From Nitrosopumilaceae archaeon (GTDB lineage: Archaea > Thermoproteota > Nitrososphaeria > Nitrososphaerales > Nitrosopumilaceae), in the NCBI GenBank assembly GCA_965209085.1, contig OZ242376.1, positions 768,001 through 832,000 on the forward strand: a stretch of DNA of 64,000 bases. Reading direction: 5' to 3'. The translations under genes were made by a program, and so were the position numbers. Shown in pieces: positions 2,929 to 62,440 of the stretch. Position 1 is the stretch's first letter, and each line of letters opens with the position of its first letter. The notes below the pieces were generated by a model. It was not told where the DNA came from, searched no databases, and saw only the letters and a program-made list of their open reading frames with translations.

Positions 2929-2962
2929 GATTTGACCCGATCAGATGTGAATATAAGCGTTT

Positions 2963-3100
2963 TTTGACCGGGTTCTGTGTAGAATACGGGAGCTTGACTA
3001 GAGTGTGTAATTTCGGGAGTTTTTTGGACGATTTGCGATCAGAATGCGACATACTCACGAATATCCGAATAAATTCTGTTCAAATCACTATTGGGTAAAG
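2963..3100 (+). mobile_element. GGTTCTGT-type element end preceded by 8-mer TTTGACCG; left junction of island
   Basis: TTTGACCG (2963-2970) then GGTTCTGTGTAG..GTGTGTAATTTCGGG..TTGCGATCAGAAT; homologous to 37709-37870. Confidence 0.75.
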
Positions 3101-3294
3101 GATGTAGGATTTATGTTGTGGTTGCAGCACAGTTCTGCAAGAGTGATGTGCGTGTTTATTGACTCCATGATGATACGCACCTTTTCGTCTGGAGCATGAT
3201 GTGATCTTTTCATTGATGAATACCTCCAAGACTGGATAAAATTTGTTCCACTTTGGGCGTTCTCATTTTATGGGGCCCACTCCACACAGCAGCA
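3100..3294 (-). mobile_element. IS3-family left-end fragment (IRL + 5' orfA)
   Basis: Matches the 5' end of the IS3 copy starting at 26907 (TGGAGTGG..ATAAAATGAGAAC). Confidence 0.85.
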
Positions 3295-3403
3295 CGGATA
3301 CTCCCACTCACTCCAAAGGTCTCACGAACCACGAACTCAGGGATTTGCCAACACTTCAAGTGTATCGGACTTGCATGTTTTCAGTCCAGTCCAAATTCTA
3401 AGA

Positions 3404-6400
3404 CTAGGTATCATCGTATATGATTATAGTTCTAATTTTGCTCTCAGGCATGTTGCCGGCCGCATCGGGGGGCGCAATGTATTCTATAAAATACATTCCA
3501 GGCTGTAAAGTGCTCAGAGCAGTAGAGTTTTCACGCGTCGTACCCTGATACGTTGGATCATTATCGTGTACAGAGGCGCCAGCATCCGTATACTCGGATC
3601 CTGCAGGAATTCTCGCTGTAAGATTTCCGTCCAGTTGGATTGTAGGCGCATCCATGTCCACAAAGACGTTTGGTGAGTCAAGATCTGATTCGATTGCAAA
3701 TACGGTTCTGCCAGCAGAGTCAACGGCGGTAATGGCAAAGGTTGCATGACCGGCATCGCCTGCCAGTACGGATGCGCTTGCATATACTATATTCTCTGTA
3801 AAGACAACATTTGCATCCCTTCCCATAATGGTTGCAGATGCATCCGCAATATCTTCACCCAAAACCCATCTTATGGTGAGCAGATCGCCGGCATTTGCGT
3901 ATTCATAGTTTGGATTGTTGGATTTTATAATCAGACCTTGCTCGTGTTTTGGGTCTTTGAAATTGGCAGCAGCTACTCTGATTGAATCAAGCATTGATTC
4001 GTATGATTTGTCACCGTGCGCCGGAGTGCCACCCTGCGACGAGATTGGGTTTGCAGACGGACCAAGACTGACTGTCTGAATTCCCTCACCGTTGCTGCCT
4101 ATAACAGCATACAGGTCTGAATTGATTTGTACTGCCGAGACGCTTGTAGCAAGACCTGTGGATACAAAGCCGCCATAGCCATCACGGATTCCTGCAGCAG
4201 GTGTAGGATTGGAAGGATCTGTAATGTTTAATATCTGCACGCCGTCATCCTCGTGACTTGCCACAAGTGCATACACAAGTTGCCCTGATTTTACAATATC
4301 AACACCCATTGGAGCCTGCAGTGATTCAAAGATTGTTGGATGACGCTCAAAGCTGTCTCTGGGCGAAGATAAAACGCTCGGTGCGGTGGGGTTTGTAATT
4401 TCTATTATGTATACCTTGTTGTAATATGTGGAAGATATGACCGAAAAGGTTCTGCCATCATTCTGCACTATGTCGTTTGTGTTGAAATGGTATGGAAAGT
4501 ATACATAGTAAAATGGATTGGCGTTTATAATTAGTGTTACAAATGGGTTTGCAGGATCTGAAATGTTTATGAATAAATTCGAACCCCAGCCGGTTGAACC
4601 CAAAACGATAGCAAACGTTTCAGTACCGATTCGTACCGTATCTACATGGTAGGGGTCACCGCCAGTGAACGCAAATGTGGCTGTCGGATTTGTCGGATCG
4701 GTAATGTTTATGATTTGAAGTCCGTCATTCTCGCTTGCAATTATTGCAAACGTGTCATCGCCTATCTCAAAGGCGTCCACATCAAAGGCTCCATCAAGCG
4801 CTGTAAACGGTGTTGGGTTTTCATCCGTACTGTCAGTTATGCCCGCCACTGCGATGGGGTTTGTCGGATCTGTAATGTTTATGATTTGCAATCCGTCATC
4901 ATCATAGCTTGCAATTAGGGCATACGTGTTTGTGCCTATCCTTGTCGTATCCACGTTGCGAGGACCCTGCAGTTCCGTAAAGCTGTCCGTCCCATCGACC
5001 ATGGAGCTGATGGCAGCAGGGTTTGCAGGATCGGTAATGTCAGTTATTCTGGCATTACTTGAATGCCAATCCACGGTTATGGCATATGTTCCAAAACCGA
5101 TCTTTACAGTCTCTACATTATATACAGGATCAAATGCAAACTGACCGCCAATGCGTAGATTACCCAAAGCTACAGGATTGTCCATTGCTGCCGGATCTGA
5201 ATTTGTCGTGCCAGTTATGTTTACGGTGCGGGTTGTACCAACTAGTCTGTTACCACTATTGTCTCCGCCTCTGTTTCCGCTTGGATCTGGGGTTATATGA
5301 TATACGATCGTGTATGTTCCTACTTTGCTCGTGTCAATAAGGTTGGCATTGGATGTAACGGTTCCCACGTATGTGGGATCGTTATCGCGTGCTTCCACAC
5401 CTTGTTCATAATACTGGGTGCCGCGAATTATCACAATATTCAGATCTCCTGTTAGGTGTAATGTTGGAGGGGTTGTATCCACGAATACGTTTTCGGAGAT
5501 TAGATTTGATTCAGTTACGTTTAGCATGTTGCCTAGTCCATCTTGTACTATAATCTCAAAGGTAGTATTGCCGTTTGTATCATTCCACCATACGGGAATG
5601 CTTGCAATAATGGATGTTACATTGGATGATATGCTGGCATTTTTGTCCAGTATTGTGGCAGTTACAAGATTAATCTCCATGCCTGCGTGCAATACGACGG
5701 TTATAATATCATCTGCCCTTGCGCGGTGTACGTTTGGATTGCTACTGTATATGTCCAGACTGTACGAGATTGATTCGGTAATGGTGATTGGTTCCTCCCC
5801 TGTCACGTTCACGATGCGGGTTATGATCGGTGCCTGGTTTCCTGCAAGATCTGCGTCTGCGGTGTATTCTATGATGTGTATGTCGGGTACGGAGGTGCTC
5901 ACATCCGTGGCATTTGAGGTAATATTGCCTTTGTATGATGGATCATTGTCGGATAATAATGCTCCCGGGTCTACATATTCTTGTCCTATCTCTATATGAA
6001 CAATTGGCATGCCAATTAGGGTCAGATTGGGCGCGATTGTATCAACGTAGACGTTTGTATCTGTCAGATCGTGTTCTGATATTTTGAGTCTAGAGAGTAT
6101 GTCTATTAGTGAAATCGCAAATGTGAGATTACCGTTTGTATGATTTTCATGTATGGTAAAAGTTGCAGTCAATGTGTTGTTGTTTATGATCGGCAGGATG
6201 GTTTTATTCAAGACGGTCATTTCTGCACCGTATATGAGTCTGTTTGTTTGCAGTTCAAGTGTAACGTCATCTCCAGTTTTGGCATATGCGTGATTTTGCC
6301 CGTTGGATGTGGCACTAAACAAAGTTATCGCATACGGGACTGGATCAAATACTGTTACGGTTCGCGTTTTATTTTCAGGTATATTTCCTGCCTGATCTGC

Positions 6401-9400
6401 ATCAGCTGAACATTGTATGGTTTGATTTCCCAGTTTGGATGTGTCAATCAGTGTGTGATTTGAGGTTACAATGCTGGCATAGGATGGATTGTTTGCATCA
6501 GATACTGAACATCCCAGATCAAAGTAAAAGCTGTTATGCACTTGAGTTACGGGGTTGTCTCCTATTATGTCGATGATTGGTTTTACTGTGTCCACTATGA
6601 TATTGGCGGATGTTAAGTTGTCATGAGTTGCAAGCAATATTTTATTTCCGGGTGCATTTGCCATGATTGTAAATGATACAGGACCGTTTGTATCCTCAGT
6701 CATTACAGTCTGTACCGCACTTATTGAACCATTTTGTATTAGAATTGTGGCGTTGCGATCCAGTATCATGGCAGTAATGTTTGATATGGGTCCTGTTACA
6801 TTCATTGTTGCGGTAATATTGTCTCCAGTTTTTGCGTAGAGGTTATTGGTATTGGAATTTGATATTGTAGGAATTATGAATTTAGTTTCGTAGTTTATTT
6901 TAAGATCACCATATATATGAATGTCATTCAAATATACATGTTCGTTATGACTGTCGCTAGCGACTGTAAAGCGCAGTGTAAGACTGTCACTGTAGATATA
7001 TTTGCCAATATCTATATTATCACTAGACCATTCTATACCGAAACGTTCCTCGTTATTGTGGCGCTCCGTATAATTTGCCACCTGCTGCCAGCTGCCATTT
7101 CCGTCATTTGCTTCAATTTTTAATCCCTCATCGTTATAGTCATCAACATTTGTCATACGATATGAGAAATTAAGATGAACTTTTTCATAAGGGGTCATAT
7201 TCAAACCGTTTTTCATAACAAGTATACAATCTTGATCACAGTCAACCGCATGAAAGACAGTATCATCAACATTGTTTTGGTTTGTGGTGTTTGTGATTAG
7301 CCAATCTTCTCCTGAGCGATCCCACTCTTGGAACGTATCTGCATGATCTTGGAAAATTGTCACATTTTTGGATTTTATTTTTATTTCTATTGTTTCTGTT
7401 CCTGTAATGTTTGCATCGTTTATGCGTATAATTTCATCACTCTTACTACTAATGGCCGTTACGCGCACGTTAAAATTCTCACTGGATGAATATTCATCCA
7501 AATTCATGTTCATTTCAGTCCATGTGAATGAATCTGTGTTTACATCATCAAAAAATGCAATCTCGTGCCACGAGTTAGATACGTTGGATACTTCTATTCT
7601 GAGACCTTCATTTTGGTATGCATCTATTCTGCTTGATAGATAATACCAGAGATTCAAGTTGGCATTATCATACTCTGTTAGATTCATACTTTGTATCGTA
7701 ACTAGTTCGCACTCGTTATCGCAATCACTTGCCTCCAGCACCTCGTCCATTACGCCGTACTGGTTTATAACTGACTCATCTGTCCATGGGGAATTTGAGT
7801 TCCATAATATTTCAGCAAGTTTAGTTATCTCTTTTATGATATAATGACCATCATCATCATCATGATACAAATAGATGAAATCTCGGGCTATATTCCCTTG
7901 TGCATCTTCTGCCATTGCAGTGACCGTATTGGTAGAACGGGATAATGATATTGTGGTAGACCAGATGTGCAAATTATTTGTCAGATTGGAATTGAGCACA
8001 TCATTAACAAAAATCGTTATAGAAGTGACATTAATGTTATCTGATGATGTTCCATTAATGACAATGTTTTTACTTTGGAATGTGGATCTATGTGACGGAT
8101 GCGTGATTTCAATTTGTGGATTGGTTTTGTCCACATAATATCGGATGTTATTATGATGAAAGTTTAATCCTAGTGATGGATATCCCAAATTGTTCCAATT
8201 ATTTTCAAAGTCAAAGATTGTTGATGAATTATCATATTTAAATGCGCGCCATAACTGGGATTCAGTAGAAAGTGTGTCGTTGATTTCATTGGCATCATCA
8301 TATATATCCCATAAAGAGGCTGCCACCCATGATTCATATTTGCTGCCAGTAATGTTAAATCGATCAGAAAAAGGATATTCTGTAGTAGTACCAGCGTTGA
8401 AAGTTGCATACTCAAAATCAATTGGATCAACATAAAACCCAGGATACAATATGGGCGAATCCCTCATCCATATTGTAAAAAACCAAGCCCAACCTTCAAC
8501 CCATCCGCATTTATCGGTGTAATGGCTATCAATATTATGACCACGACATATGGGTATTTCTGAATTTAAATTTATATAAATTTGATCTTGAATATGATGG
8601 GCGTATTCATGTGGGAGTACAGCAGTAATGTTATAATTCAGCACATATGGAATATAGATTGTCGCATTTAGATAGGATGCCGGTCTAATATCATTTAATG
8701 TTACGTTAACGGTAGGTGCATCATACGACACCTTTGAGTATAATAAATCATGCATGGATGTCACATCAGCATACATTTGATGTGTAATTGGATAATTCAT
8801 CGGATATTGGTTTACGGTACCTACGTAAATTATTCTATCTTGTATGCCATAACGTATATTTGCAAGTGATTCATAAAATTCCACAGGTTTGTTATTGTTT
8901 ATAATTTTAACTGCATCATTTACTAATGATACACCAATAAGTAAATCCATGTATCCCCCACCAGGATTTGGATCCTCATTTATTCCTATTAATTTAAAGA
9001 AGCCATTAGAATATGATCGAGTACAAACATCACGGTCGCCACTTTTTAATATAGTCATATCACTATTATTGTGTATATTAACATCGAATGCACATATGAG
9101 ATAATCATCTGCTGGAACATGATTTAGATCCTCATTTATGGTATTATAATACCCATATACATAAAATTGAAGCGGAGCTGCTGCTGTCACCTTGGGTAAA
9201 AAAAAATCATTAAATATTGTATTTTGTGTTGAAAATTCCGGATATGCGTTAAAAAAATCATCTACAAAATCTTCTGAAAGATTTTCATCCATCAGCCAAT
9301 TTTTAGTAATTTGAATACCTTCATTTTTTTCCACTGATCTTAAAAATTCGGCAAGGCCTTCCCAACCTGGTTGAGGCACATATCCGGGTTCTTTAACTAC

Positions 9401-10402
9401 ATTTGGCGGCGGAGTAAATTGTTGGACAGGTTGAGGTTTTGGTATGTAATCAGGCAGACCACTTGGCAATGTTTCAAATTCCCGATCGCCACTAAACCAT
9501 TTTTGTGTTGTATGATTAAAGGACAATCCGAAATATTGTGTGGTATCGCGATAACTAGATACTCTAAATTCCGGATCTGTGTTGGATATAGCTTTTACTC
9601 CATGTTCAGTAGGGGTTAGTTGTAAATCCAATCCCACATCATGCACCCCTACACTAAAGATACTATCTGTATGCACCAGTGGTCTTGTTAATTGAAACTT
9701 TATGGAACCGTGGACAGTTTCATTAGTAAAAAATATGGGCTCTCCATGATAAACTACTTTCAGATATCTTATATGAGGACTTGCTGCGATTGATTTAGGT
9801 TTGAATGAATCAGTCAGCATGATAAATTCAGAGTGTAATATAATCTTAGGAACAACCATCACATCGTTTCCATGTATATCGAGATATCGAATATTACCAT
9901 TTTCATCAATACGATGAGGTCTACCATCAGGTACAGCATATTGAGGAGTGCCATCCTCATCAAGCCAATCCACGGTATAATTTATTATAGATGTTTCATT
10001 AATTTTGATATCTCGTGAAACTTCTAATGAAATAAATGGACTCACAAGATTTATAAAAGATTGATGTGATCCGCTAGTGATGGTAATTTTTCCATCATTG
10101 GCATTTGTTTCTCTAGATGTATTTACGGCAGGATATTTTATTTCAGTATGTTGTGTATTGGTCAATACCGACCATCCGAGTTTTTGAGCGGTTTTTTCTG
10201 ATACGCATGCAATTTTATCCATTCCTCGATCAACGAGTAAAAGATCGTCTCGGCATACTATATTATGCGGCATCGTTCCACTATCAAGCTGTTTTTTTGG
10301 ACTTTGAACATAATCTGAGGGTTGCGCGTATGTGGTAGAGATTGTGACAGTTGATAATATTATAATTAATGTGAGAATGAATAAAATTTGATAGTTTGGC
10401 AT
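3404..10402 (-). CDS. Giant (2332 aa) secreted/surface protein: putative Zn-peptidase domain, repeated Ig-like/DUF5011-like modules, LVIVD-like propeller
   Basis: Signal peptide; SPKKQ..C..ACV..LGW thaumarchaeal motif; HEYAH + EGWA zincin motif; four S(N)xxxxYAxxGD...VDTxxP..G modules; repeated QIINITDPTNP. Confidence 0.8.
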   Translation of the reverse strand: MPNYQILFILTLIIILSTVTISTTYAQPSDYVQSPKKQLDSGTMPHNIVCRDDLLLVDRGMDKIACVSEKTAQKLGWSVLTNTQHTEIKYPAVNTSRETNANDGKITITSGSHQSFINLVSPFISLEVSRDIKINETSIINYTVDWLDEDGTPQYAVPDGRPHRIDENGNIRYLDIHGNDVMVVPKIILHSEFIMLTDSFKPKSIAASPHIRYLKVVYHGEPIFFTNETVHGSIKFQLTRPLVHTDSIFSVGVHDVGLDLQLTPTEHGVKAISNTDPEFRVSSYRDTTQYFGLSFNHTTQKWFSGDREFETLPSGLPDYIPKPQPVQQFTPPPNVVKEPGYVPQPGWEGLAEFLRSVEKNEGIQITKNWLMDENLSEDFVDDFFNAYPEFSTQNTIFNDFFLPKVTAAAPLQFYVYGYYNTINEDLNHVPADDYLICAFDVNIHNNSDMTILKSGDRDVCTRSYSNGFFKLIGINEDPNPGGGYMDLLIGVSLVNDAVKIINNNKPVEFYESLANIRYGIQDRIIYVGTVNQYPMNYPITHQMYADVTSMHDLLYSKVSYDAPTVNVTLNDIRPASYLNATIYIPYVLNYNITAVLPHEYAHHIQDQIYINLNSEIPICRGHNIDSHYTDKCGWVEGWAWFFTIWMRDSPILYPGFYVDPIDFEYATFNAGTTTEYPFSDRFNITGSKYESWVAASLWDIYDDANEINDTLSTESQLWRAFKYDNSSTIFDFENNWNNLGYPSLGLNFHHNNIRYYVDKTNPQIEITHPSHRSTFQSKNIVINGTSSDNINVTSITIFVNDVLNSNLTNNLHIWSTTISLSRSTNTVTAMAEDAQGNIARDFIYLYHDDDDGHYIIKEITKLAEILWNSNSPWTDESVINQYGVMDEVLEASDCDNECELVTIQSMNLTEYDNANLNLWYYLSSRIDAYQNEGLRIEVSNVSNSWHEIAFFDDVNTDSFTWTEMNMNLDEYSSSENFNVRVTAISSKSDEIIRINDANITGTETIEIKIKSKNVTIFQDHADTFQEWDRSGEDWLITNTTNQNNVDDTVFHAVDCDQDCILVMKNGLNMTPYEKVHLNFSYRMTNVDDYNDEGLKIEANDGNGSWQQVANYTERHNNEERFGIEWSSDNIDIGKYIYSDSLTLRFTVASDSHNEHVYLNDIHIYGDLKINYETKFIIPTISNSNTNNLYAKTGDNITATMNVTGPISNITAMILDRNATILIQNGSISAVQTVMTEDTNGPVSFTIMANAPGNKILLATHDNLTSANIIVDTVKPIIDIIGDNPVTQVHNSFYFDLGCSVSDANNPSYASIVTSNHTLIDTSKLGNQTIQCSADADQAGNIPENKTRTVTVFDPVPYAITLFSATSNGQNHAYAKTGDDVTLELQTNRLIYGAEMTVLNKTILPIINNNTLTATFTIHENHTNGNLTFAISLIDILSRLKISEHDLTDTNVYVDTIAPNLTLIGMPIVHIEIGQEYVDPGALLSDNDPSYKGNITSNATDVSTSVPDIHIIEYTADADLAGNQAPIITRIVNVTGEEPITITESISYSLDIYSSNPNVHRARADDIITVVLHAGMEINLVTATILDKNASISSNVTSIIASIPVWWNDTNGNTTFEIIVQDGLGNMLNVTESNLISENVFVDTTPPTLHLTGDLNIVIIRGTQYYEQGVEARDNDPTYVGTVTSNANLIDTSKVGTYTIVYHITPDPSGNRGGDNSGNRLVGTTRTVNITGTTNSDPAAMDNPVALGNLRIGGQFAFDPVYNVETVKIGFGTYAITVDWHSSNARITDITDPANPAAISSMVDGTDSFTELQGPRNVDTTRIGTNTYALIASYDDDGLQIINITDPTNPIAVAGITDSTDENPTPFTALDGAFDVDAFEIGDDTFAIIASENDGLQIINITDPTNPTATFAFTGGDPYHVDTVRIGTETFAIVLGSTGWGSNLFINISDPANPFVTLIINANPFYYVYFPYHFNTNDIVQNDGRTFSVISSTYYNKVYIIEITNPTAPSVLSSPRDSFERHPTIFESLQAPMGVDIVKSGQLVYALVASHEDDGVQILNITDPSNPTPAAGIRDGYGGFVSTGLATSVSAVQINSDLYAVIGSNGEGIQTVSLGPSANPISSQGGTPAHGDKSYESMLDSIRVAAANFKDPKHEQGLIIKSNNPNYEYANAGDLLTIRWVLGEDIADASATIMGRDANVVFTENIVYASASVLAGDAGHATFAITAVDSAGRTVFAIESDLDSPNVFVDMDAPTIQLDGNLTARIPAGSEYTDAGASVHDNDPTYQGTTRENSTALSTLQPGMYFIEYIAPPDAAGNMPESKIRTIIIYDDT

Positions 10403-10652: not shown

Positions 10653-10970
10653 ATGCAGTACATGATAATAACTCATTATCAAATATTAAAAATACTGTAT
10701 ACCAAATGGCCATACGGCATAACTGGCACTGAAATCTTGAAATATCTTCATGATAACAGTAACACTACGATTGATAATGGTGCTTTGAAAAAATATATGC
10801 TACAACTTGAAAAGGTTGGCCATATCAAGATAGGCGACTCGCCTTCATCATTAAATATTGACGACACACGTTATTTCTTAACACCAATCACGTTTTTGGC
10901 GATTTCTGAAAAATCAAAACATCCAAATTTACCATTTCCTGATGTGGAAAATAAACGCATACTTACATAG
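10653..10970 (+). CDS. Small putative winged-helix protein, possibly truncated by IS5
   Basis: ILKIL..GITGTEI..L..LEKVGHI..RYFLTP wHTH-like pattern; TAG stop is made from TA target + first IS base. Confidence 0.5.
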   Translation: MQYMIITHYQILKILYTKWPYGITGTEILKYLHDNSNTTIDNGALKKYMLQLEKVGHIKIGDSPSSLNIDDTRYFLTPITFLAISEKSKHPNLPFPDVENKRILT

Positions 10971-13708: not shown

Positions 13709-13902
13709 TATACCATACCATACTCTGATCGAAAATCTTCCAAAATCACATACTTCGATCTAATATATGAAAAAATCTCTCAAAATTGATACTTTCGTAG
13801 GCATATTGTTAAACAGATCTCATAACCAAATGGTGAATTCATACCTTTCTGATCGCAGATTCTGTAAAAACCCTGAAATTTCACATCTAATGATTTTCGT
13901 AA

Positions 13903-14250
13903 GAGTTTGACTCGTCTAAAACTAGATCGCTATTTCAAAAAAACCCTGATCGCAAATATCCACGTGATGCTTGTACCAACCCCCGAATTTACACACTATT
14001 TTGTATATAAAGCAAAAACCCCCGAAATTACACACTCAGGCATAACCCCCGTGGATTACACAGAACCCGGTCAAAGGTTCTGTGAAGTTGGCGGGGGTTG
14101 TGGCTAGGTGTGAAGTTTCGGGGGTTGTTTCTTTATATACAAAATGGTGTGAAATTTCGGGGGTTAATGTAGTATGTTGAGGTATTATTATGGATATTTG
14201 CGATCAGAATTTTTCTAGAATAGCGATCTAATTTTAGATGGGCAGAATTC
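13903..14250. repeat. ~350-bp foldback: two GGTTCTGT ends head-to-head around 8-bp spacer CGGTCAAA
   Basis: ...TACACAGAACC (to 14067) CGGTCAAA GGTTCTGTGAA (from 14076); arms with iterated CCCCGAAATTACACAC motifs and GATCGCAAATATCC. Confidence 0.9.
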
Positions 14251-30518: not shown

Positions 30519-30730
30519 GGCTCTGAAATCCGTGGAGGTTGTGACTAGGTATGAAGTTTCGGGGGTTTTTCTATATGTACTATAAAGTGTGTAAAATTTG
30601 GGGTTGGTGCAACATGCCGAAGTATTATTTGGGATATATACGATCAAAATTTTTCTAAAATGACGATATAATTTTAGATGTGTCAAATTCTTATAACACA
30701 GATCAAATATGATGTTTCAGGGTTTTTTGG
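30519..30730 (+). mobile_element. Degenerate GG(C/T)TCTG element end
   Basis: GGCTCTG..GAAGTTTCGGGGG..GTGTGTAAAATTTGGGG..GATCAAAATTTTTCTA..ATTTTAGATG matches 14076-14250. Confidence 0.75.
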
Positions 30731-30951
30731 AGGATCCACGATCATAATGGTGTGGGTAAGCAGGTTAGTCTTGGTAACCACTGCTATGTAATAGAAGATT
30801 ACCCTCACCCATAGTGGGATATTTTTGTTCTGATAGGAATGATCATTTTTGTACAAAATTCCTTTTTCCACATCCAATACATTAAAATCAATTCTCCGAT
30901 CTAACCAACTGCCATTTTTGGATTTTTTCTAGTGATTTACTCCAGCATTTA

Positions 30952-37497: not shown

Positions 37498-37533
37498 ATA
37501 TCCAAGATTTAGATCACCTATGATGGTTTTCAT

Positions 37534-37820
37534 GAGTTCTGCCCATCTAAAACTAGATCGCTATTTCAAAAAAACCCTGATCGCAAATATCCCAAATAAT
37601 GCCTCAACATATTGCATCAACCCCCGAATTTACACACTATTTTGTATATAAAGCAAAAACCCCCGACATTACACACTATAGACCAACCCCCGCCTGTTAC
37701 ACAGAACCTTTGACCGGGTTCTGTTCAGAATTCGGGGGGTTTGGGTTGGCGTTCAGTTTCGGGGGGTTTTTTGCTTATATGTAAAATGGTGTTCAATTTC
37801 GGGGGGTTTTGCGATCAGAA
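37534..37820. repeat. Second head-to-head GGTTCTGT end pair around TTTGACCG
   Basis: ..TACACAGAACC (37708) TTTGACCG GGTTCTGTTCAG (37717); same iterated arms as 13903-14250. Confidence 0.9.
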
Positions 37821-37869
37821 TACGACATATTACGAATATCGGAATAAATTCTGTTCAAACCACTACCAG

Positions 37870-45574: not shown

Positions 45575-45576
45575 TA

Positions 45577-46949: not shown

Positions 46950-46961
46950 TAATGAATGCAG

Positions 46962-48249: not shown

Positions 48250-48254
48250 AACAT

Positions 48255-51494: not shown

Positions 51495-51495
51495 T

Positions 51496-53399: not shown

Positions 53400-53474
53400 T
53401 ATACTGCATATAAAATACGTCCAAATCCGGCACGCGATTGATTTATTTAAATCGACTATAATCCAAATACGGAC

Positions 53475-55255: not shown

Positions 55256-55256
55256 T

Positions 55257-55445
55257 CTATATTACCTTTAGGGCGTATTTTCCCTTTGTAGTTATCCCAA
55301 GCGTCTTTGCAATGTGCGATGTACCAGGTTCGACAATCAAAACAATGCCGTTCCAGTTTGGCGTAAGATCTGATGATTTGCATGCAGGACATATTTTTGC
55401 GGGGGTAATACACTTGCATTTTCTGCAGGCCATCTCCCGTGCCAT
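55257..55445 (-). CDS. spt4: Transcription elongation factor Spt4 (RpoE2)
   Basis: ACRKC..CPAC..WNG..S.IA..LGI..GKYALKV; follows rpoE1. Confidence 0.93.
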   Translation of the reverse strand: MAREMACRKCKCITPAKICPACKSSDLTPNWNGIVLIVEPGTSHIAKTLGITTKGKYALKVI

Positions 55446-56042
55446 TTATTTTTTCACCTTTTTTGGTGCGGCTTTTTCAACAGGTTTTGGCTTGCCGATA
55501 TTTTTTATCTCCTCTTTTATCCACTCATCAGCGCCCAAAAACGGCTGCCTGCATGTAATGCCAATTTTACCCATCGATGCGCCTTTGCCCAAAGAGACTG
55601 CCGTAATTCGAGTACGCATCATATTTCCGGCTCTTAATGTGCGGCCGCTTTGATTTGCAAGTATGATTCCAGATTTTGGATCACTCTTCAAATAATCATC
55701 CATCACCTGCGAGAGGTGCAGCAGGGCATCAGTTGGTCCTATGCGGACAAATGCGCCAAAGTCTGTAACATCTATAATCTCACCGCGCACAATTTCCTGC
55801 ATTTTTGGATAAAACGTTAACGCTTCAAATTCGGCCCTGTGAAAAGTGCCCCCGTCGCCGGCAACCATGCGGCCCATCTCTTCAACTTTGGCATCCATTA
55901 TCATAATTATATATCCAAGATCCGCACTGACCATGCTCTCGTATTTTTCCTTTAGTATGTTGATTGCCGCCTTTTTGAGTGTGGTTCCAAACAGACTCGG
56001 CGGTATGCGTACCACGTCAACAAGCGTTGATATTGAAAACAA
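55446..56042 (-). CDS. rpoE1: RNA polymerase subunit Rpo7 (RpoE1)
   Basis: DVVRIPP, GDGG, S1 domain FGAFVRIGP.DALLH.SQ, RQPFLG. Confidence 0.95.
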   Translation of the reverse strand: MFSISTLVDVVRIPPSLFGTTLKKAAINILKEKYESMVSADLGYIIMIMDAKVEEMGRMVAGDGGTFHRAEFEALTFYPKMQEIVRGEIIDVTDFGAFVRIGPTDALLHLSQVMDDYLKSDPKSGIILANQSGRTLRAGNMMRTRITAVSLGKGASMGKIGITCRQPFLGADEWIKEEIKNIGKPKPVEKAAPKKVKK

Positions 56043-56175
56043 TTAAACATCCGTCTTGAAGTTTAATTTATGAACGTTTTGTTAATTATTCTGTAACATT
56101 TGACAATATCTGCGATTTTGGCGCATATTTGATCCTTTATCCACGCCTAGCGGGGAATGCTGCATAGATGCGCTA

Positions 56176-57407
56176 GATTCTGTGTAAAATACAGGAGATA
56201 TGCACGGATATGAAATTTTGAGAGTTTTTCTCTGATCGTTTGTACATATTGATGAAAACCCTGTAATGGTTACTCTTTTGTTTTTTTGTAACTTGTATAT
56301 TTTTTTTGTATTTGAACCAAATATTTGCATGTTTGAATATAGAGACGTTCCAGGATGCCAAAGCTGCAATATCATACGCCTTTGGATTATAATTAACACA
56401 GGGTATACTCTACAATAGGATATGTTACGCCATCAGAATTTGGTCTTGCACGGAGGATGATGATAAAATGAGCCCTCTGATCCTATCATTTTTAATGCAA
56501 AAATCGTTCTCATTGTACAGGAGTTCGCATCAACTAACAATAATTAAAACCTTAATGTGTGAGGTCATCTATTAAACGATACTGAGCACCACTTCAAAGA
56601 CGCTTTTACCATGTGATCTCCACATCAAAACGCACGTTAGATAGTTTGACATTCTTCTCATAGATTCAGATCCTCTGATCTGTCATCTTATCTTACTGCA
56701 AACCACGACATCCCGTAATGCACGTTAGGCTGCATTGTTTGTAGATGAAATGTTTTCATGCTCTATAAAGGCAAACAGATTCATCGTCGCATTCTCCAAT
56801 TGTTTGATCAAACTCTGCATTTTGGACATTTCTGCACTGCAGTATTTATCTAACATGACATCAAGTGTGTACTCAAACGCATGTCGTACACTTGCACCGC
56901 CGTGGATATTATTTTTAGCATCGTTGAACAGTATGCACAGATTCTCGTAGAGTCTATGATGTGTACTGTCATGTGGTTAACCGCCCGCAGCTTGTGCACC
57001 CAGCACCGTTGGTGCATTCCTCCAGGATCAAATCTCGCGTATACTGGATATCCGTCAGTTACTGCAACATCAAATTTGTCCATATATGCGTCCATAACAT
57101 ACGCGCCGCGACTCTTGTTCATAATTATCGCAATATTTTTCTCGTATGCGATTGTCCACACCCAAACCATCAATCCATTCAGTATGTACGAGGTCTCATC
57201 AATATTGACAAACGGTGATTGACAACTGTGTTTGTTATTGTTTTTGCCTCCGTTTTCATTAGATCCAAGGCATTTGAGATCATGTTGATTATAGTGGATT
57301 TGGCAGACCGCATGTCAGCCTCTGAAAATTCACATTTTTACCAAATATCATCAAAAAACCCCCGAAAACTCACACCTACGCCTAGCTCATGCCTATTACA
57401 CAGAACC
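56176..57407. mobile_element. Complete non-autonomous unit bounded by G(G/A)TTCTGTGTAA ends with degenerate 8-bp target duplication
   Basis: ATGCGCTA|GATTCTGTGTAA ... TTACACAGAACC|ATGTGCCA; contains IS3 right end (56342-56532) and IS66 transposase debris (about 56640-57330). Confidence 0.75.
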
Positions 57408-57450
57408 ATGTGCCAATTCGTATAAATATTATCAATGATTTAACGATCTC

Positions 57451-58557
57451 ATGGTAGGCGTAGATACTGTACTTGAAAAACTCTCATCAGTAATTGATCC
57501 AGATCTGAAAAAAGACATAGTCTCAATGGGGATGATAAAAGATCTTGAAATAGATTCAGGCCATTTGAAATTTACATTAGAGCTGACAACTCCTGCCTGC
57601 CCGTTTAATGTCGAAATAGAAGAGGATGTGCGCCGGGCAATATCTGAAATTAAAGATGTTACAAAATTTGATCTGAATGTAACTGCCAAAGTAATGGAGG
57701 GGAGATCTTTAGAAGATGATGCTGGCATGGCTACTGTAAAAAACATCATCGGCGTGGCAAGCGGCAAGGGAGGAGTTGGAAAATCCACAGTCTCATTAAA
57801 CTTGGCACTTGCATTATCTAAAACTGGCGCCAAAGTGGGACTGCTTGATGCTGATATTTACGGTCCTAGCATACCCTTGATGCTTGGAATGAAGGATGGC
57901 TCCATGCAAGTTGAAGAGAACAAACTGCAACCGGCAAAAGCTGAAGGGTTGAGCGTGGTCTCGTTTGGATTTTTTGCACAACAGGATCATCAGGCGGCAA
58001 TATACCGCGGGCCGATAATTTCAGGGATTTTGAAGCAGTTTCTTGTAGATACAAACTGGAGCGACCTTGACTATCTGCTAGTTGATCTGCCGCCAGGTAC
58101 CGGGGATATTCCGCTAACTCTTGCACAGACAATACCCATAACTGGAATACTTGTGGTTACGACCCCGCAAGAGGTGGCAAGCAGCGTTGCAGTAAAAGCG
58201 ATAGGAATGTTTGAGAAACTAAATGTGCCAATGCTTGGAATAATAGAAAACATGAGCGGTTTTGTATGCACAAACTGTAATACAAGACATGAGATATTTG
58301 GATCCGGCGGTGCAGAAAAAATAAGCGAAAAACACAAACTGCCGTTTATTGGTACAATACCTTTAACCCCTGAGATAATGTCAGGCGCTGATGATGGCAA
58401 GCCTTTACTGTTATCGGATCCGGGATCCCCTAGTTCTGTAGCGTTTGTGGATGCTGCAAAAAAAGTTGCAGCACAGTGCAGCATACTTGCAGCCAAACTA
58501 CAAGAGGAGGCAAATGCCCCCCATGCCGATAAGATACCTGCAGAGCCGGGCACATAG
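57451..58557 (+). CDS. mrp: Mrp/NBP35 (ApbC) Fe-S carrier ATPase
   Basis: N-terminal DPDL..TTPACP, SGKGGVGKS, DADIYGPS, DLPPGTGD, ENMS..CxxC. Confidence 0.95.
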   Translation: MVGVDTVLEKLSSVIDPDLKKDIVSMGMIKDLEIDSGHLKFTLELTTPACPFNVEIEEDVRRAISEIKDVTKFDLNVTAKVMEGRSLEDDAGMATVKNIIGVASGKGGVGKSTVSLNLALALSKTGAKVGLLDADIYGPSIPLMLGMKDGSMQVEENKLQPAKAEGLSVVSFGFFAQQDHQAAIYRGPIISGILKQFLVDTNWSDLDYLLVDLPPGTGDIPLTLAQTIPITGILVVTTPQEVASSVAVKAIGMFEKLNVPMLGIIENMSGFVCTNCNTRHEIFGSGGAEKISEKHKLPFIGTIPLTPEIMSGADDGKPLLLSDPGSPSSVAFVDAAKKVAAQCSILAAKLQEEANAPHADKIPAEPGT

Positions 58558-58560
58558 GGT

Positions 58561-59067
58561 ATGGCAAAACTTGCCCCCTCTCAGCGGGCAGAATTTAAAA
58601 AACCCCTAGGTGCACTAATCCCTGACGCTGAAATTACTGCAAATGCAGTTATATCGCATGCAGGTGTTGATGCATCATACATTACGGTGGGGGATGCGAG
58701 CACAGAGAGGGCATCATCGCTTGGTTTGAATGTATGCATGGAGGTTGTAGATGGCCATGAAATGAGATCTTTACGCAGTGCACCAAAATTGCGTAAAAAT
58801 TTTACAATTATACGGTGTATAAATCCTCCAGGAGAGATAACATCTGATGCTGAATCTGTAATTTGTGCAGCAATGTGTAAAATTCCTGAAATAAAAGTGA
58901 GGATACTAGTTGATGGTGAGGAGGATCTCCTGCTTTTACCCGTATGCGCCAAGGCTAAAGATGGCTTTGCTGTACTGTACGGGCAGCCAAATGAGGGTAT
59001 GGTTGTAGTGCGTGCGAATCCTACCTCAAGGAATAAGGCTAAATCCATGCTTGATTCTATGCAATAA
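58561..59067 (+). CDS. GTP-dependent dephospho-CoA kinase (DUF359)
   Basis: KKPLG, ITVGD, VVDG..R, NPPGEIT, VDGEEDL, YGQPNEG. Confidence 0.9.
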   Translation: MAKLAPSQRAEFKKPLGALIPDAEITANAVISHAGVDASYITVGDASTERASSLGLNVCMEVVDGHEMRSLRSAPKLRKNFTIIRCINPPGEITSDAESVICAAMCKIPEIKVRILVDGEEDLLLLPVCAKAKDGFAVLYGQPNEGMVVVRANPTSRNKAKSMLDSMQ

Positions 59068-59175
59068 CGGGTATGATGACCCGGTGGCTGTATGATTTGT
59101 GATTACACACCAACATGTCTGACCCATCTTTAATTCCCCATGTGGTAATAAACAAAGTATGCCATATATGGTACT

Positions 59176-59553
59176 ATGAAATTGGATCCGGATTTAAGAT
59201 TGGCAATACTTGAAAAAGTGGGCGTATACTCTGTTAGATTTTCAATCCGCGAGCCTCATACTGTGCTATCCACAAAGGAGGTTTTACAAATGCCCTCAGA
59301 GATGACCACGGGGCGGCGTACTTCAGCTTACAAGTATTACGGGGTATCTTACATGCATCATAATCTAGTGTTCATCAATGTTCGAAAGATACCTGATTAC
59401 AAGGTTTTAGAGAATACCATTGTGCACGAGCTAATCCATATGAGGTTTCCATATTTGAGTCATGGCAGACGTTTTAACTCGCTTGTAAGACGTGGTTTGC
59501 GCGGGGGAGAATTTGCCCCGTATAAGAAATATCGTAAATGTATAGAGTTTTGA
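59176..59553 (+). CDS. Small zincin-like (SprT/YgjP-like) protein
   Basis: IVHELIH..HGRRF; last codons derive from an IS66-type end. Confidence 0.7.
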   Translation: MKLDPDLRLAILEKVGVYSVRFSIREPHTVLSTKEVLQMPSEMTTGRRTSAYKYYGVSYMHHNLVFINVRKIPDYKVLENTIVHELIHMRFPYLSHGRRFNSLVRRGLRGGEFAPYKKYRKCIEF

Positions 59554-59850
59554 AGCGATTCTATCACATGATCGAGTATTTTCTATCGTGATCTTTATGG
59601 ATCTGACACAAACATGACGAATTGTTGTCCGAACGTGACCAAAATAACCACAACCAAAGGCCACTGAATCGATATTGCCGTGAGTACATTTGGGATTAAC
59701 TGGATCGTAAATGGCTAGCCCTCCAAATCCCTCTCTGAGAGGATTTTAACCAATTCTGTGTGCGGATTGTTCCCACTCATACGCATGGTCTCATAAAAGA
59801 TCAGAATGACACCAAGCCATCTTGTGCCTTTTGCGTTTTTCAATCCTCCC
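59534..59850. mobile_element. IS66-family debris
   Basis: GTAAATGTATAGAGTTTTGAAGCGATT... matches IS66 left end; minus-strand GGLKNAKG.. resembles a TnpC C-terminus. Confidence 0.7.
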
Positions 59851-59896
59851 TTTTCCCATTGTTGATTTATATTTAAGATACTGGGCGTGCGGGTAA

Positions 59897-61936
59897 ATGG
59901 ACATAACGCAAGCACTTCCTATTGTGGCGTGCGCAGTCTCGTTTGCAATCGCTGGACTTTATTCGGCATGGATCCTGCGTCAGAGTCCGGGAACGAGCGC
60001 AATGCAGGAGATTTCAGAAGCTGTACGTGTGGGAGCTGCTGCCTTTTTGCGCCGTGAGATGAAGATTATAATCCCCATAGCCATAGGATTGGCCATCGTA
60101 ATTGGCTATTTTATAGGCGTATCAAACGGTGTCGCATTTGCAGTTGGTGCATCACTATCTGCTGTTGCCGGAATCATCTCCTTGAAGATAACTGTCAAAG
60201 CTGCGGTGCGAACTGCGTATTTGACAAACAAGGGGCTTGGACGCACGTTTGCACTGGCATTTCGCGGGGGGGCCACTGTTGGATTGGCGGTTCCGGCAAT
60301 GGCGCTTTTGGCAATAACTTTGCTATATTACGTATATCCTGATCCAATTACCATCGCTGGAGTTGGAATCGGTGCTAGCCTTATTGCGCTCTTTATTCGA
60401 ATTGGCGGGGGGATATTTACAAAGGCTGCTGACATGGGGGCTGACCTTGTGGGTAAAGTGGAGGCAAATATCCCCGAAGATGATCCTCGTAATCCTGCAA
60501 CCATAGCTGACAACGTAGGAGATAACGTGGGCGATGCTGCCGGAATGGGCTCTGATGTATACGAGTCGTACATTGTAACAATGCTTGCCTCGCTTTTGAT
60601 TGCAGCTCTTATTGCAGCGCCTGAGATACTGATATATCCTCTACTTATTGCAACATCTGGAATGATTGCATCCATAATTGGAACTGCGACAATCAGATCC
60701 AAAGATGTCAAAGATGTAATGAAGCCGCTCAACCGTTCATTTTACATCTCTGCTGCCATTGCCATTGGGTTAAACTTTGCATTTACCAAATTATTCCTAG
60801 GCGATACGCCACTAGCATACGCGCTGTTTGGAACCACAGTTGTCGGGGTAATTTTGGTTCCTGTCATACAAAAGATCACAGACAGGTATACAAATCATAA
60901 ACACGGTCCGGTAAAAGAGATAGCAGCTTCTGCAAAATGGGGATACGCCTCACTTACATTAATGGGAATAACCAAAGGACTCCAGTCTACAGGTCCGTTT
61001 ATGATTGCACTAGTTGCAGCAATTATAATCTCTTATGCTATTGCATCATCTGCAGCTCCGGATCCAGAACAGGCCGTTTTATATGGAATATTTGGAACAT
61101 CACTTACTGCAATGGCAATGCTAAGTTTGGCTGGAATCGTTTTGAGCATTGATGCGTTTGGACCCATTGCAGATAATGCCGGCGGAATAGTAGAGATGAC
61201 TGCAATGGGTGAGGAGAACCGCAAAGTTACTGATGAGATTGATGCTGTAGGGAATACAACCAAAGCTGTGACCAAAGGATTTGCCATAGCTAGCGCAGGT
61301 CTTGCCGCACTTGCAATGATGCAGGCGTTCCAGTTTGAGGCAGCTGAAATCTTTGATGGAGTATTGGATTTGGATTATACCCTTACAAATCCTGCAGTAA
61401 TTATCGGATTGCTAGTCGGCGGTCTTATTCCGTTTATTATATCCGGGCAGCTAATTGCCGGGGTATCTCGGGCTGCAACAAAGATGGTTGATGAGGTGCG
61501 CAGACAGTTCAAAAACGATCCGGAAATTCTCACCGGAAAATCAAAACCAGATTATGCAAGATGCGTGGATATTGCAACAGTTGCATCATTAAAAGAGCTG
61601 TGGAAATCAGCAAGCATTGCAATCGCATCTCCCATAATCATCGGGGTACTCTTGGGTCCGACCGCTGTTGCCGGTCTTCTTATGGGCTCTGTTGTATCTG
61701 GAATATTTCTTGCATACCATCTTGTAAATACCGGCGGCGCATGGGATAATGCGAAAAAACTCATCGAGATGCAAGGTCACAAGGGTTCAGAGGAGCACAA
61801 AGTTGCAGTGGTTGGAGATATAATCGGTGATCCCTACAAGGATACTGCGGGTCCGGCATTAAACACTGTCATAAAACTGCTAAATACAGTATCCATTGTC
61901 TTTGTGTCAGCATTTGTGGCAATTTTGGTACTCTAG
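59897..61936 (+). CDS. hppA: Membrane-bound H+-translocating pyrophosphatase, K+-independent type
   Basis: GGGIFTKAADMGADLVGKVE, EDDPRNPATIADNVGDNVGD, GNTTKA (Lys signature), GGAWDNAKK, GDPYKDTAGP. Confidence 0.96.
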   Translation: MDITQALPIVACAVSFAIAGLYSAWILRQSPGTSAMQEISEAVRVGAAAFLRREMKIIIPIAIGLAIVIGYFIGVSNGVAFAVGASLSAVAGIISLKITVKAAVRTAYLTNKGLGRTFALAFRGGATVGLAVPAMALLAITLLYYVYPDPITIAGVGIGASLIALFIRIGGGIFTKAADMGADLVGKVEANIPEDDPRNPATIADNVGDNVGDAAGMGSDVYESYIVTMLASLLIAALIAAPEILIYPLLIATSGMIASIIGTATIRSKDVKDVMKPLNRSFYISAAIAIGLNFAFTKLFLGDTPLAYALFGTTVVGVILVPVIQKITDRYTNHKHGPVKEIAASAKWGYASLTLMGITKGLQSTGPFMIALVAAIIISYAIASSAAPDPEQAVLYGIFGTSLTAMAMLSLAGIVLSIDAFGPIADNAGGIVEMTAMGEENRKVTDEIDAVGNTTKAVTKGFAIASAGLAALAMMQAFQFEAAEIFDGVLDLDYTLTNPAVIIGLLVGGLIPFIISGQLIAGVSRAATKMVDEVRRQFKNDPEILTGKSKPDYARCVDIATVASLKELWKSASIAIASPIIIGVLLGPTAVAGLLMGSVVSGIFLAYHLVNTGGAWDNAKKLIEMQGHKGSEEHKVAVVGDIIGDPYKDTAGPALNTVIKLLNTVSIVFVSAFVAILVL

Positions 61937-62071
61937 ATTAGACGGTACTGATACTTGTGCTGATTGCTCTAATATTTGGCGTGCATAATGCAAAATATGG
62001 CAGATGAAAAACATCATAACGTACAATCACACTTGACTGTAAATATATAAAAAATAAAAATTATCTGTATT

Positions 62072-62341
62072 TTAAGCGCAGCCTTCCATCTTTTGGATGA
62101 AATATCCTTTTTGTTGGATTTCCTGCTCGATTGGCTCCGATGCTCCCTGGGAATGGCAAAACTTACATTCCTCGGTGGTAATTTTGGAGTCTGCCTCATC
62201 AATTGACGAGAGCCATTCTTTGGCGTATCCTAGGGCTTTGTCGTGGTCTTTTTCGCTAGTGATTACATCAAAATGCATCGTGTGGCCGTCTTTTGCTTTG
62301 ACATATGTATCATATACGTGTACTTCCATGTTGTTTGGCAT
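62072..62341 (-). CDS. DUF2024-family protein
   Basis: VHVYDTYV..G.TMHFDVI..C.FCHS..G..I.KMEGC. Confidence 0.8.
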   Translation of the reverse strand: MPNNMEVHVYDTYVKAKDGHTMHFDVITSEKDHDKALGYAKEWLSSIDEADSKITTEECKFCHSQGASEPIEQEIQQKGYFIQKMEGCA

Positions 62342-62375
62342 TTTTATTGTGGGTTATTTATATTGACAGCAAAAG

Positions 62376-62440
62376 GGCTCTGTTACCTTGGTTGGTATTC
62401 TCTGAAAGTGTGTACTTTTGGGTGTTTTACGATCAGAATA
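62376..62440 (+). mobile_element. Degenerate GGCTCTGT element end
   Basis: GGCTCTGT..GTGTGTACTTTTGGGTGTTTTACGATCAGAAT resembles 2971-3045 and 37790-37821. Confidence 0.55.

Follow-up and report, generated by a model that had tools for sequence, protein, structure and literature searches.

An archaeal clade of IS6/IS26-family insertion sequences probably chooses its target at a fixed spot upstream of the TATA box of host genes, leaving the promoter intact. Targeting to promoters is well supported, and we infer that the geometry is due to target choice rather than to selection after insertion. The elements were studied in a window of 64,000 nt, by which we mean the whole stretch of DNA analysed, from a Nitrosopumilaceae archaeon (GCA_965209085.1, contig OZ242376.1, positions 768,001-832,000 of the forward strand). 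The terminal sequence GGTTCTGT occurs six times in the window (2971+, 14060-, 14076+, 37701-, 37717+ and 57400-) against 1.46 expected occurrences, a count reached by 0 of 100 shuffles, and two degenerate ends, at 30519 (GGCTCTGA) and 62376 (GGCTCTGT), can be aligned to the other ends over 60-230 nt. The ends and their flanks are listed below in window positions; matrix scores come from a TATA/BRE matrix based on crude calls of the genes in this genome (the ORF set covers 80% of it), and offsets are counted from the terminus.

2971..3040, plus strand: IS6-type end, interior rightward, adjoining the cupredoxin promoter (matrix score 7.6 at offset 13)
2963..2970, cupredoxin flank: 8-mer TTTGACCG, with a TATA-like box at 2950-2957 (minus strand) and the ATG at 2928
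13850..14067, minus strand: IS6-type end, interior leftward
14068..14075, unstranded: 8-nt spacer CGGTCAAA between head-to-head ends, the reverse complement of the cupredoxin 8-mer
14076..14250, plus strand: IS6-type end with three subterminal repeats GTGTGnAAnTTTCGGGGGTT
30519..30754, plus strand: degenerate end GGCTCTGA (best matrix score 5.3 at offset 11)
37500..37708, minus strand: IS6-type end, interior leftward, 84% identical to 14076-14250
37709..37716, unstranded: 8-nt spacer TTTGACCG between head-to-head ends, with the letters and orientation of the cupredoxin flank 2963-2970
37717..37821, plus strand: IS6-type end GGTTCTGTT, 91% identical to 3032-3284 from 37808 on
56176..56236, plus strand: weak degenerate end GATTCTGTG, the partner in the rpoE-mrp spacer insertion (nhmmer E 0.0013-0.002)
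57316..57407, minus strand: IS6-type end adjoining the mrp promoter (matrix score 7.1 at offset 13)
57408..57415, mrp flank: 8-mer ATGTGCCA, with TATAAATA at 57421-57428 and the ATG at 57451
62376..62500, plus strand: degenerate end GGCTCTGT adjoining the DUF2024 promoter
62355..62362, DUF2024 flank: TATAAATA, with the likely start codon at 62329

In the window, most copies survive not as whole elements but as single ends, decayed or non-autonomous, at rearrangement breakpoints. A search for a transposase gene inside the window elements found none, no window-type end in the window retaining one, and the only genes adjoining these ends are cellular ones and those, whole or fragmentary, of IS3, IS630, IS4/5 and IS66; an IS3-family fragment starts at 14253, directly after the end at 14076..14250, and the stretch 37717-57407 contains housekeeping genes. 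Relative to a genome of the same genus (G019), gene order is interrupted at single ends, and the DUF2024 gene is inverted beside an end. Window positions 12788-14068 are 95.6% identical to genome positions 661076-662349, where the same end adjoins the msrA promoter, and the end at 62376 has about 125 nt in common with an end at genome position 843157. Two pairs of ends stand head to head 8 nt apart (14067/14076 and 37708/37717), and the cupredoxin 8-mer is found three times in the window, in both orientations. Downstream of the degenerate end at 30519, at a distance of 42 nt, comes a 74-aa ORF (30252-30476, minus strand), which itself precedes an OLD-family nuclease gene (28277-30157). Inverted IS copies are also present at 10968-12405 and 34873-36309, the duplication being too short to show whether inversion flipped the 14-kb junction.

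The GGTTCTGT ends are IS6/IS26-family termini of an archaeal clade. They read GGTTCTGT(G/T/A) or GGCTCTGT, combining a GG tip with a CTGT motif, and the 'caaa' motif further in is partly present only (AAAC in the autonomous copy); a family review gives the IS6 termini as a GG tip plus a cTGTt motif (PMC7986276), and IS257 and IS1216E begin 5'-GGTTCTGTTGCAAAG. An autonomous 3-kb copy B (1312905-1315944) and a second one, copy A (570889-575328), have 25-nt inverted repeats starting GGTTCTGT; copy A is bounded on both sides by the perfect 8-bp duplication TGTGATAA, while copy B, which is intact and carries further small ORFs, has no matching duplication (TGATATCA versus AAGAATCG). An 8-bp target duplication was thus found at copy A, as well as at elements in other genomes, and at the window's mrp insertion 6 of the 8 positions agree. 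The transposase consists of a DDE_Tnp_IS240 core behind a cysteine-rich N-terminal extension (zinc-ribbon; weakly SWIM-like) and scores as a DDE/helix-turn-helix transposase with 56.9 and 54.6 bits against PF13610 (cut-off 27). Against the NCBIfam IS6 model NF033587 (cut-off 125), the copy of this genome reached 116.3 bits, just below the cut-off, and that of L057, a related 1.4-kb element whose ends have the same r1/r2 repeats as the window ends, reached 133.8 bits. The family had gone unrecognised in an earlier sequence-only reading of the window, which had left the cognate transposase to be identified; an autonomous copy with the same tip in the same genome encodes a DDE_Tnp_IS240 transposase. 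With 1420-4645 bp and small passenger ORFs in some members, the elements depart from the small single-ORF format of about 0.7-0.9 kb. Tn7/Mu-like elements, IS21, casposons, hAT and ISL3, all considered from the subterminal repeats, were dropped because of the IS6-type autonomous copy, the shared tip and the 8-bp duplication. When the 14076-14250 end was used as a DNA query against 200 Nitrosopumilaceae genomes, there was no match outside this genome, since the ends diverge too fast, and relatives were reached by protein search; exact-pattern scans returned only three genome-contig stretches (Streptococcus, actinomycete) and two metagenome stretches, which are G/T-rich or GC-rich chance matches.

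The sequence-only reading had proposed that the ends sit at a constant distance from TATA-like boxes at four genes (cupredoxin, a small ORF, mrp and DUF2024), with every promoter intact and every gene pointing away from the element. Its four flank sequences agree exactly with ours, the best TATA/BRE matrix score falls 11-15 nt from the terminus at all four sites, and all flanking genes are intact and face away. Its start-codon offsets of 42, 42, 43 and 34 can all be read as given, except that the start of DUF2024 is most likely the second ATG (offset 46), since the alignment with relatives begins only at residue 5. The claim that the target duplication survives at mrp holds in part: no second exact copy of ATGTGCCA lies beside any end, and an imperfect copy, ATGCGCTA, matching at 6 of 8 positions, precedes 56176.

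Across the genome, hexamers resembling a TATA box are most frequent at positions -32 to -27 relative to start codons. We scored an end as fitting when an ORF of at least 70 aa started at offset 42-46 and the matrix score was at least 4 at offset 11-15. Six of 13 window-type ends fitted this joint rule compared with 6 of the 280 ends contributed by nine other repeat families (Fisher P = 1.7e-6), the thresholds having been fixed after the first four cases were seen, so that the rule was shaped on four of the six, and some ends being duplicates of one another and hence not independent. The two others, at msrA (genome position 661077) and at a 119-aa gene (843157), were found only afterwards, and 77 of 20,000 random positions fitted. 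A profile scan of the whole genome gave 23 ends of the family (nhmmer E < 0.05), nine of which have a TATA box at 11-15 nt together with a start codon at 42-46 nt; the five beyond the four already noticed include msrA and a gene just outside the window. Among the 14 non-fitting ends, four face another end and three belong to elements that fit at their opposite end; the end at 1315944 has a TATA box at 13 nt and no ORF, the end at 1529769 has an ATG at 46 nt and its best TATA score at 16 nt, and five single ends in this genome are without a TATA box. No tRNA or Rfam family accounts for the flank at 661 kb, where the gene is msrA, with a GTG start.

Judged from sequence and position, the flanks are native promoters. 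In G019 the cupredoxin, DUF2024, msrA and mrp promoters are free of the element, and likeness to these flanks extends up to the terminus; rpoE and mrp are adjacent in relatives. In the interval 55400-62900, the junction between 57407 and mrp is bridged by assembled contigs of runs X1 and X2, which may be the window's own source, and none of the contigs, which break at repeats, joins across an empty site.

The promoter-set position of insertion recurred in related genomes, where 35 elements with an 8-bp duplication were collected, 34 of them with duplications matching at 8/8 positions and one at 7/8; the cases are not independent, since nine lie at radA, two at the L12/P1 gene and three at one further locus, and the survey leans to well-kept elements because end pairs were obtained from only 14 of the first 30 loci. 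Flank scores of at least 4 peaked at offsets 13, 14 and 15 (16, 8 and 7 matches, versus about 2 elsewhere), and start codons were found at 42-48 nt in 18 of the 59 flanks that do not abut another end. When look-alike flanks were merged, 15 of 43 clusters had a TATA box at 11-16 nt. At least one flank had a TATA box at this distance in 26 of 37 elements, compared with 303 of 3,646 random positions in the same loci. The promoter was faced by one element end or the other in a ratio of 14 to 10, with no bias. Six elements had no flank scoring 4 or more and abutted no other end; three of these (L085, L127, L130) scored 3.3-3.9, and the remaining three (L066, L103, L114) showed nothing TATA-like.

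Nine elements occupy the radA promoter; their inverted repeats and 8-mers vary, and every one of them has a perfect duplication. One 8-bp radA site is shared, across genera, by elements whose inverted repeats differ, and it is reused within arrays. The radA site of the present genome is empty and holds, in the same place, CAAAAGCA, the sequence duplicated in L060 and L072. Head-to-head ends 8 nt apart were found at 9 of 37 elements, the other 28 abutting no other end, and where only one side abuts an end, the free side is the promoter in six of seven cases (four at radA, one at L12/P1 and one at the further locus; the exception is L092). Such an arrangement follows if repeated insertion at one promoter reuses the same 8 bp, which leaves the ends head to head and 8 nt apart.

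Several other explanations were weighed against target choice. TATA-like words are common beside intergenic insertions, since 58 of the 280 ends of other repeats score at least 4 somewhere at offsets 11-15, and with four cases only and a loose definition of "TATA-like" the pattern might have arisen by chance in AT-rich intergenic DNA; this is hardly credible and is already contradicted by the joint-rule counts in this genome, by the fit of the two out-of-sample ends and by the sharp peaks at 13-15 nt and 42-48 nt in the offset histograms of the 35 elements from other genomes. The exact 8-nt spacing of head-to-head ends, seen in both window pairs and in nine elements elsewhere, would suit an element that aims at the ends of resident copies, its link to promoters being secondary and inherited from a few founding insertions. 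We regard this as distinctly improbable: insertions beside promoters are mostly solitary, only one end is present at each of the msrA, mrp, DUF2024 and 843157 sites in this genome, and the prevalence of the promoter on the free side of one-side abutters is what repeated promoter targeting predicts.

Insertion might also be random or merely AT-preferring, with the geometry made by selection that spares promoters in a compact genome or might even favour sites adjacent to them, as in the case of the IS26 and IS257 hybrid promoters. The genome is indeed gene-dense, every flanking gene is intact, and the formation of hybrid promoters is described as a general IS6 property in a family review (PMC7986276). 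We nevertheless consider this account unlikely. The nine other repeat families live under the same constraint and rarely fit; although the rpoE-mrp spacer offered about 90 nt of free sequence, the end settled just 5 nt away from the BRE region; the near-uniform perfection of the duplications implies young insertions; and the same 8 bp at radA was used by different elements in different genera, repeatedly within arrays. Moreover, the element contributes nothing to the promoter, whose BRE and TATA box belong to the host. Selection after insertion could still add to the pattern, as IS6 hybrid promoters are known to be retained by selection (PMC7986276).

Under promoter targeting, the cue read by the transposase may be the promoter bound by TBP/TFB (or its bend) or the TATA/BRE DNA itself. 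A more specific and rather tentative proposal is that the transposase, perhaps via its cysteine-rich N-terminal extension, docks on a promoter already occupied by TFB/TBP and cuts the DNA where that complex ends on the upstream side. Whatever the cue, target choice places the end of the duplicated 8 bp 5 nt upstream of the TATA box, so that the tip lies 13-15 nt away from the box, immediately outside the BRE, with the start codon of a mostly leaderless gene at 42-48 nt. Both ends of the element can face the promoter, and promoter and gene remain intact and oriented away from it. The three to four subterminal repeats are putative transposase binding sites, and the single ends at gene-order breaks could have arisen by replicative or intramolecular transposition of the IS6 type, with the numerous IS copies recombining afterwards.

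IS6/IS26 elements rank with the best-studied insertion sequences of bacteria and are regarded as showing little target choice. If our reading is true, insertion at a set distance from the TATA box of archaea would be a new mode of target choice in prokaryotes, parallel to the finding of safe sites by some eukaryotic retroelements. It would explain how many copies are tolerated in a compact and very IS-rich archaeal genome, would single out promoters, radA among them, as repeated breakpoints in genome rearrangement, and would provide a simple experimental handle on archaeal promoter recognition as well as a possible starting point for promoter-proximal insertion tools. Should the docking proposal hold, this would be the first prokaryotic counterpart of Ty3 and TRE5-A, with the basal transcription machinery serving as a safe-harbour beacon, and each insertion would mark a promoter that was occupied at that time. 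No paper describing promoter-targeted archaeal IS6 elements was found in the literature searched, which left aside the IS tables in the supplements of the thaumarchaeal mobilome paper PMC6563490.

In comparison with known systems, the archaeal clade shares with IS6/IS26 members (IS26, IS257/IS431, IS1216E, IS6100) the GG tip and CTGT motif, the 8-bp duplication, the DDE_Tnp_IS240 transposase (with archaeal scores around the NCBIfam IS6 cut-off), the rearrangements with single ends at gene-order breaks and the frequent position beside promoters, and the first 8-9 nt of the IS257/IS1216E repeat are identical to the archaeal ends. According to the family review, typical IS6 members are 700-890 bp long with 14-20-bp repeats and no marked target choice, and a few longer ones of 1.2-1.8 kb are on record (PMC7986276). 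The archaeal elements differ in their length of 1.4-4.6 kb, in the cysteine-rich N-terminal extension of the transposase, in the three to four subterminal direct repeats that some carry over 100-200 nt, and in their fixed TATA distance, the whole promoter being host DNA rather than a hybrid with an IS-borne -35 element. Insertion at the ends of resident copies is also a habit of IS911, IS30 and IS26 in its targeted mode, and the junctions of IS911, IS30 and IS21 arise from circles or dimers or through attraction to a resident repeat. Their head-to-head ends with a spacer as long as the target duplication resemble those described here, whereas in the present elements the spacer equals the 8-mer next to the promoter, and insertions are mostly solitary. 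Yeast Ty3 and Dictyostelium TRE5-A are retroelements positioned by the Pol III factor TFIIIB, and they share with the archaeal clade the fixed short distance from a promoter or basal complex (in the archaeal elements 13-15 nt to the TATA box, with the start codon at 42-48 nt), the sparing of the gene, the safe harbour and the reuse of the same site. Those two are eukaryotic retrotransposons that have integrases and known protein contacts, whereas the present case is an archaeal DNA transposon whose position appears, from the sequence, to be defined by the TATA box and BRE.

The terminal sequence GGTTCTGT occurs six times in the window against 1.46 expected by chance. Stretches of 60-230 nt are common to all ends, beginning at each GGTTCTGT and including the degenerate sites at 30519 and 62376, and inward of each end lie three to four direct repeats of ~20 nt (GTGTGnAAnTTTCGGGGGTT) at ~40-nt spacing. 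Similarity breaks off abruptly at GGTTCTGT; between window 12788-14068 and a 1281-nt copy at genome 661076-662349, divergence starts exactly there. The ends are mostly single. The host is an archaeon, since its genome, a very IS-rich single contig of 1.69 Mb, carries TBP, TFB, RadA and RpoE; it may be an ammonia-oxidising thaumarchaeon. The DNA that separates the window ends holds IS3-, IS4/5-, IS630-, IS66- and DDE_Tnp_4-type elements and pieces of such elements, a 2332-aa surface protein, a serpin, an OLD-family nuclease and housekeeping genes, which rules out that the ends are borders of three large elements.

Genes and repeats of the window.
2272-2928, minus strand: cupredoxin, its N-terminal half made of Met/Glu/Asp-rich 21-nt repeats (MMMMEEEM...)
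3404-10402, minus strand: surface protein with Ig-like domains
12630-12706, 19463-19539, 27690-27763: 77-nt repeat, also at ~25 other genome places (51 ends counted)
21311-22795: 494-aa RNase_H_2/HhH protein, near the OLD nuclease
25101-26579: 492-aa protein without Pfam match, near the OLD nuclease
28277-30476, minus strand: OLD-family nuclease (AAA_15/AAA_21 plus OLD-like TOPRIM domain) behind a 74-aa ORF that belongs to no known family
48383-48456: second scattered repeat, ~75 nt (63 ends)
48.5-56 kb: housekeeping genes (deoxyhypusine synthase, purC, nadA, nadC, aspartate dehydrogenase gene, rpoE)

Parts of the surface protein are 92-95% identical to genome 1198668-1203215 and therefore reflect a recent partial duplication; repeats similar to those of the cupredoxin recur in the genome at 412.6-413.5 kb and at 132.3 kb. 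The nuclease and the 74-aa ORF may be a defence pair. Both scattered repeats look MITE-like and were used as control ends only.

IS257 and IS1216E of the IS6 family have inverted repeats starting 5'-GGTTCTGTTGCAAAG, according to two published accounts (bioRxiv 10.1101/2020.09.30.320143; PMC2920175), and the IS6 review lists as family hallmarks a terminal GG, the motif cTGTt and direct repeats of 8 bp (PMC7986276). A PF13610 search of this genome returned four strong matches. Two matches are copies of one element, copy B at 1312905-1315944, which is intact, and copy A at 570889-575328, which another IS interrupts, with 25-nt inverted repeats (GGTTCTGTAAACTTATCGGTGCATA) and, at copy A, a perfect target duplication (TGTGATAA). 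Both copies have a TATA-like box 13 nt from one end, TATATAAC, followed by an ATG at offset 44 counted outward from the terminus, and CTTATATA. The transposase scores 56.9 bits with PF13610 and 116.3 with the NCBIfam IS6 model, against a cut-off of 125, while that of a 1420-bp element at another fetched locus (L057) reaches 133.8, above this cut-off. The ends of the latter element have the same r1/r2 repeats as those in the window, which are thereby tied to an autonomous element of IS6 type; the L057 element stands outside the 35-element set described below because its flanking 8-mers differ.

Copy B (locus L038, 545-3464) also carries small ORFs beside the transposase: three coiled-coil-like ones of 78-96 aa, a 125-aa membrane protein, and AbrB-type-like 56-aa and ribbon-helix-helix-like 46-aa ORFs, both likenesses judged by eye. 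Its flank (genome 1315945-1316000; L038 3531-3590) is radA-promoter-like, with CTTATATA and then GTACCGTAC..ACGGTATG; no radA ORF was seen downstream and no matching duplication at the copy, which may have arrived along with a piece of foreign radA flank.

The sequence-only reading had described a terminus followed by 8 nt, 5 nt and a TATA-like box at four genes, namely cupredoxin (end 2971), the 74-aa ORF (30519), mrp (57407) and DUF2024 (62376), and all four flanks were re-read exactly as given. For an unbiased measure of TATA likeness, long ORFs were called crudely across the genome and a BRE/TATA matrix (AAnnTTTAWAT) was derived from their upstream regions. TATA-like hexamers concentrate there at -32 to -27 relative to the first ATG, as expected if genes are mostly leaderless. 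In the 5-60 nt beyond each terminus, the best matrix match lay at offset 13 for cupredoxin (score 7.6) and mrp (7.1), at offset 15 for DUF2024 (5.2, with 4.1 at offset 13) and at offset 11 for the small ORF (5.3). In a same-genus genome (G019), the cupredoxin, DUF2024, msrA and mrp promoters are all present without the element, and similarity to this genome reaches the terminus, or within a few nt of it, and then ends. On sequence comparison, the flanks beside the ends are native promoters. Gene order beyond the ends differs between the two genomes: cupredoxin in G019 has as its upstream neighbour the gene that here lies at window 49523-50815, and the DUF2024 gene alone (window 62048-62375 versus G019 locus L027) is inverted relative to its neighbours, with an IS6-type end at its promoter side, the G019 order being a 679-aa gene, DUF2024 and an aconitase-like gene in one common direction.

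Scanning the genome with the end profile added a weak end at window 56176 and two strong ones, at genome 661077, 44 nt upstream of the msrA GTG start with TTTAAACT at offset 13, and at 843157, just beyond the window, where CTTTAATA stands at offset 13 and the end precedes a 119-aa ORF by 45 nt. Relatives carry rpoE and mrp as adjacent, divergently oriented genes with a spacer of ~250 nt, and 56176-57407 is therefore one 1232-bp insertion in that spacer, with a TATA box adjoining its mrp-side end only. The target duplication said to survive at mrp does have a partner 8-mer, but the two (ATGCGCTA and ATGTGCCA) share only 6 of 8 letters. The rpoE-mrp spacer attracts insertions in both genomes; in G019 (locus L013) a different IS, with a 318-aa DDE_Tnp_1-like ORF, lies upstream of mrp where rpoE would be. 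A whole-genome tally (E < 0.05, n = 23) comprised nine ends with the full geometry, four facing another end, three far ends of elements whose opposite end fits, and five with none of the geometry features seen. End 1315944 has a TATA box at 13 nt and no ORF, and end 1529769 has an ATG at 46 and reaches its highest TATA score at 16 nt. Single ends of the copy A/B type, at 256787 and 1625967, also match the geometry.

Chance was gauged by a joint rule that asks for an ORF of 70 aa or more with its start at offset 42-46 and for a matrix score of 4 or higher at offset 11-15. This held at 6/13 window-type ends compared with 6/280 ends of nine other repeat families in the same genome (Fisher's test, p = 1.7e-6), and at 77/20000 random genome positions. 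Four of the six positive ends had served to shape the rule; the later-found pair also conforms.

The geometry recurs beyond this genome. Transposase relatives were present in 117 of 301 genomes of the family (seven unpublished genomes counted), and 107 loci were fetched (L038-L145 without L059). Pairs were kept if their ends began GGnnCTG[T/A] with at least 15 of 22 letters alike and their flanking 8-mers were at least 7/8 alike, a selection free of any promoter criterion. This yielded 35 elements of 1.86-4.6 kb, 34 of them with an 8/8 duplication. Flank matrix scores of at least 4 peaked at offsets 13, 14 and 15 (16, 8 and 7 matches versus ~2 per offset elsewhere), and among the 59 flanks not abutting another end, 18 had the start of an ORF of at least 60 aa at 42-48 and only three had one at 0-41. 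After look-alike flanks were merged into 43 clusters the peak persisted (9, 6 and 6 matches at offsets 13-15), with a TATA box at 11-16 nt in 15 clusters and a start codon at 42-48 nt in nine. Counting the two copies of this genome (37 elements), at least one promoter-type flank was found in 26, compared with 303/3646 random positions in the same loci. Either end may face the promoter (14 versus 10), without orientation bias. The flank consensus is rich in A at offsets 2-5, 8 and 10 and reads TTATAAA at 14-20, and the 8-mer showed no consensus across the flanks of the 37 elements. Target genes include radA (nine elements), the L12/P1 ribosomal protein gene (two), a histidine kinase, a phosphoesterase and an oxidoreductase.

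At radA the elements differ in inverted repeats and in 8-mers, every duplication being perfect, and the empty radA site of this genome has CAAAAGCA, the duplication of loci L060 and L072, at the same position, which points to one spot struck repeatedly and independently. Between the radA TATA box and start codon lies a conserved inverted repeat (GTACCGTAC...ACGGTA), seen across genera (L087, L094, L112, L122, L089, L085, L056, L072, L145) and in the empty site here (~345966-346020); it may be a regulatory hairpin or operator.

Ends standing head to head can be read in two ways. In the window the cupredoxin 8-mer TTTGACCG makes up both 8-nt spacers, inverted at 14068-14075 and direct at 37709-37716, and in other genomes another end abuts at exactly 8 nt in 9/37 elements. 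Seven of the nine have such a neighbour on a single side, and in six of these seven a promoter occupies the free side (radA four times, L12/P1 once, and once a third recurrent locus with no ORF), L092 being the exception. Attraction of insertions to resident ends could also bring ends together in this way; most simply, new insertions would have re-entered one and the same 8 bp, set by the promoter, to give the order P-X-new-X-old-X. For the geometry as a whole, we infer target choice and not selection, because other IS families behave differently, the duplications are young and perfect, the same 8 bp are re-used, and the BRE and TATA box belong to the host DNA. The duplicated 8 bp directly precede the BRE, where the TFB/TBP footprint has its upstream edge. 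Tethering to TFB/TBP would fit, and so would recognition of the TATA/BRE DNA itself or of its bend.

The literature searched yielded no report of such promoter-proximal target choice, and the word 'promoter' is absent from the main text of PMC6563490. The element itself belongs to a known kind, the IS6 family. New, as far as our searches reach, are its size, its choice of targets at a fixed position close to promoters, and the long ends that bear subterminal repeats.
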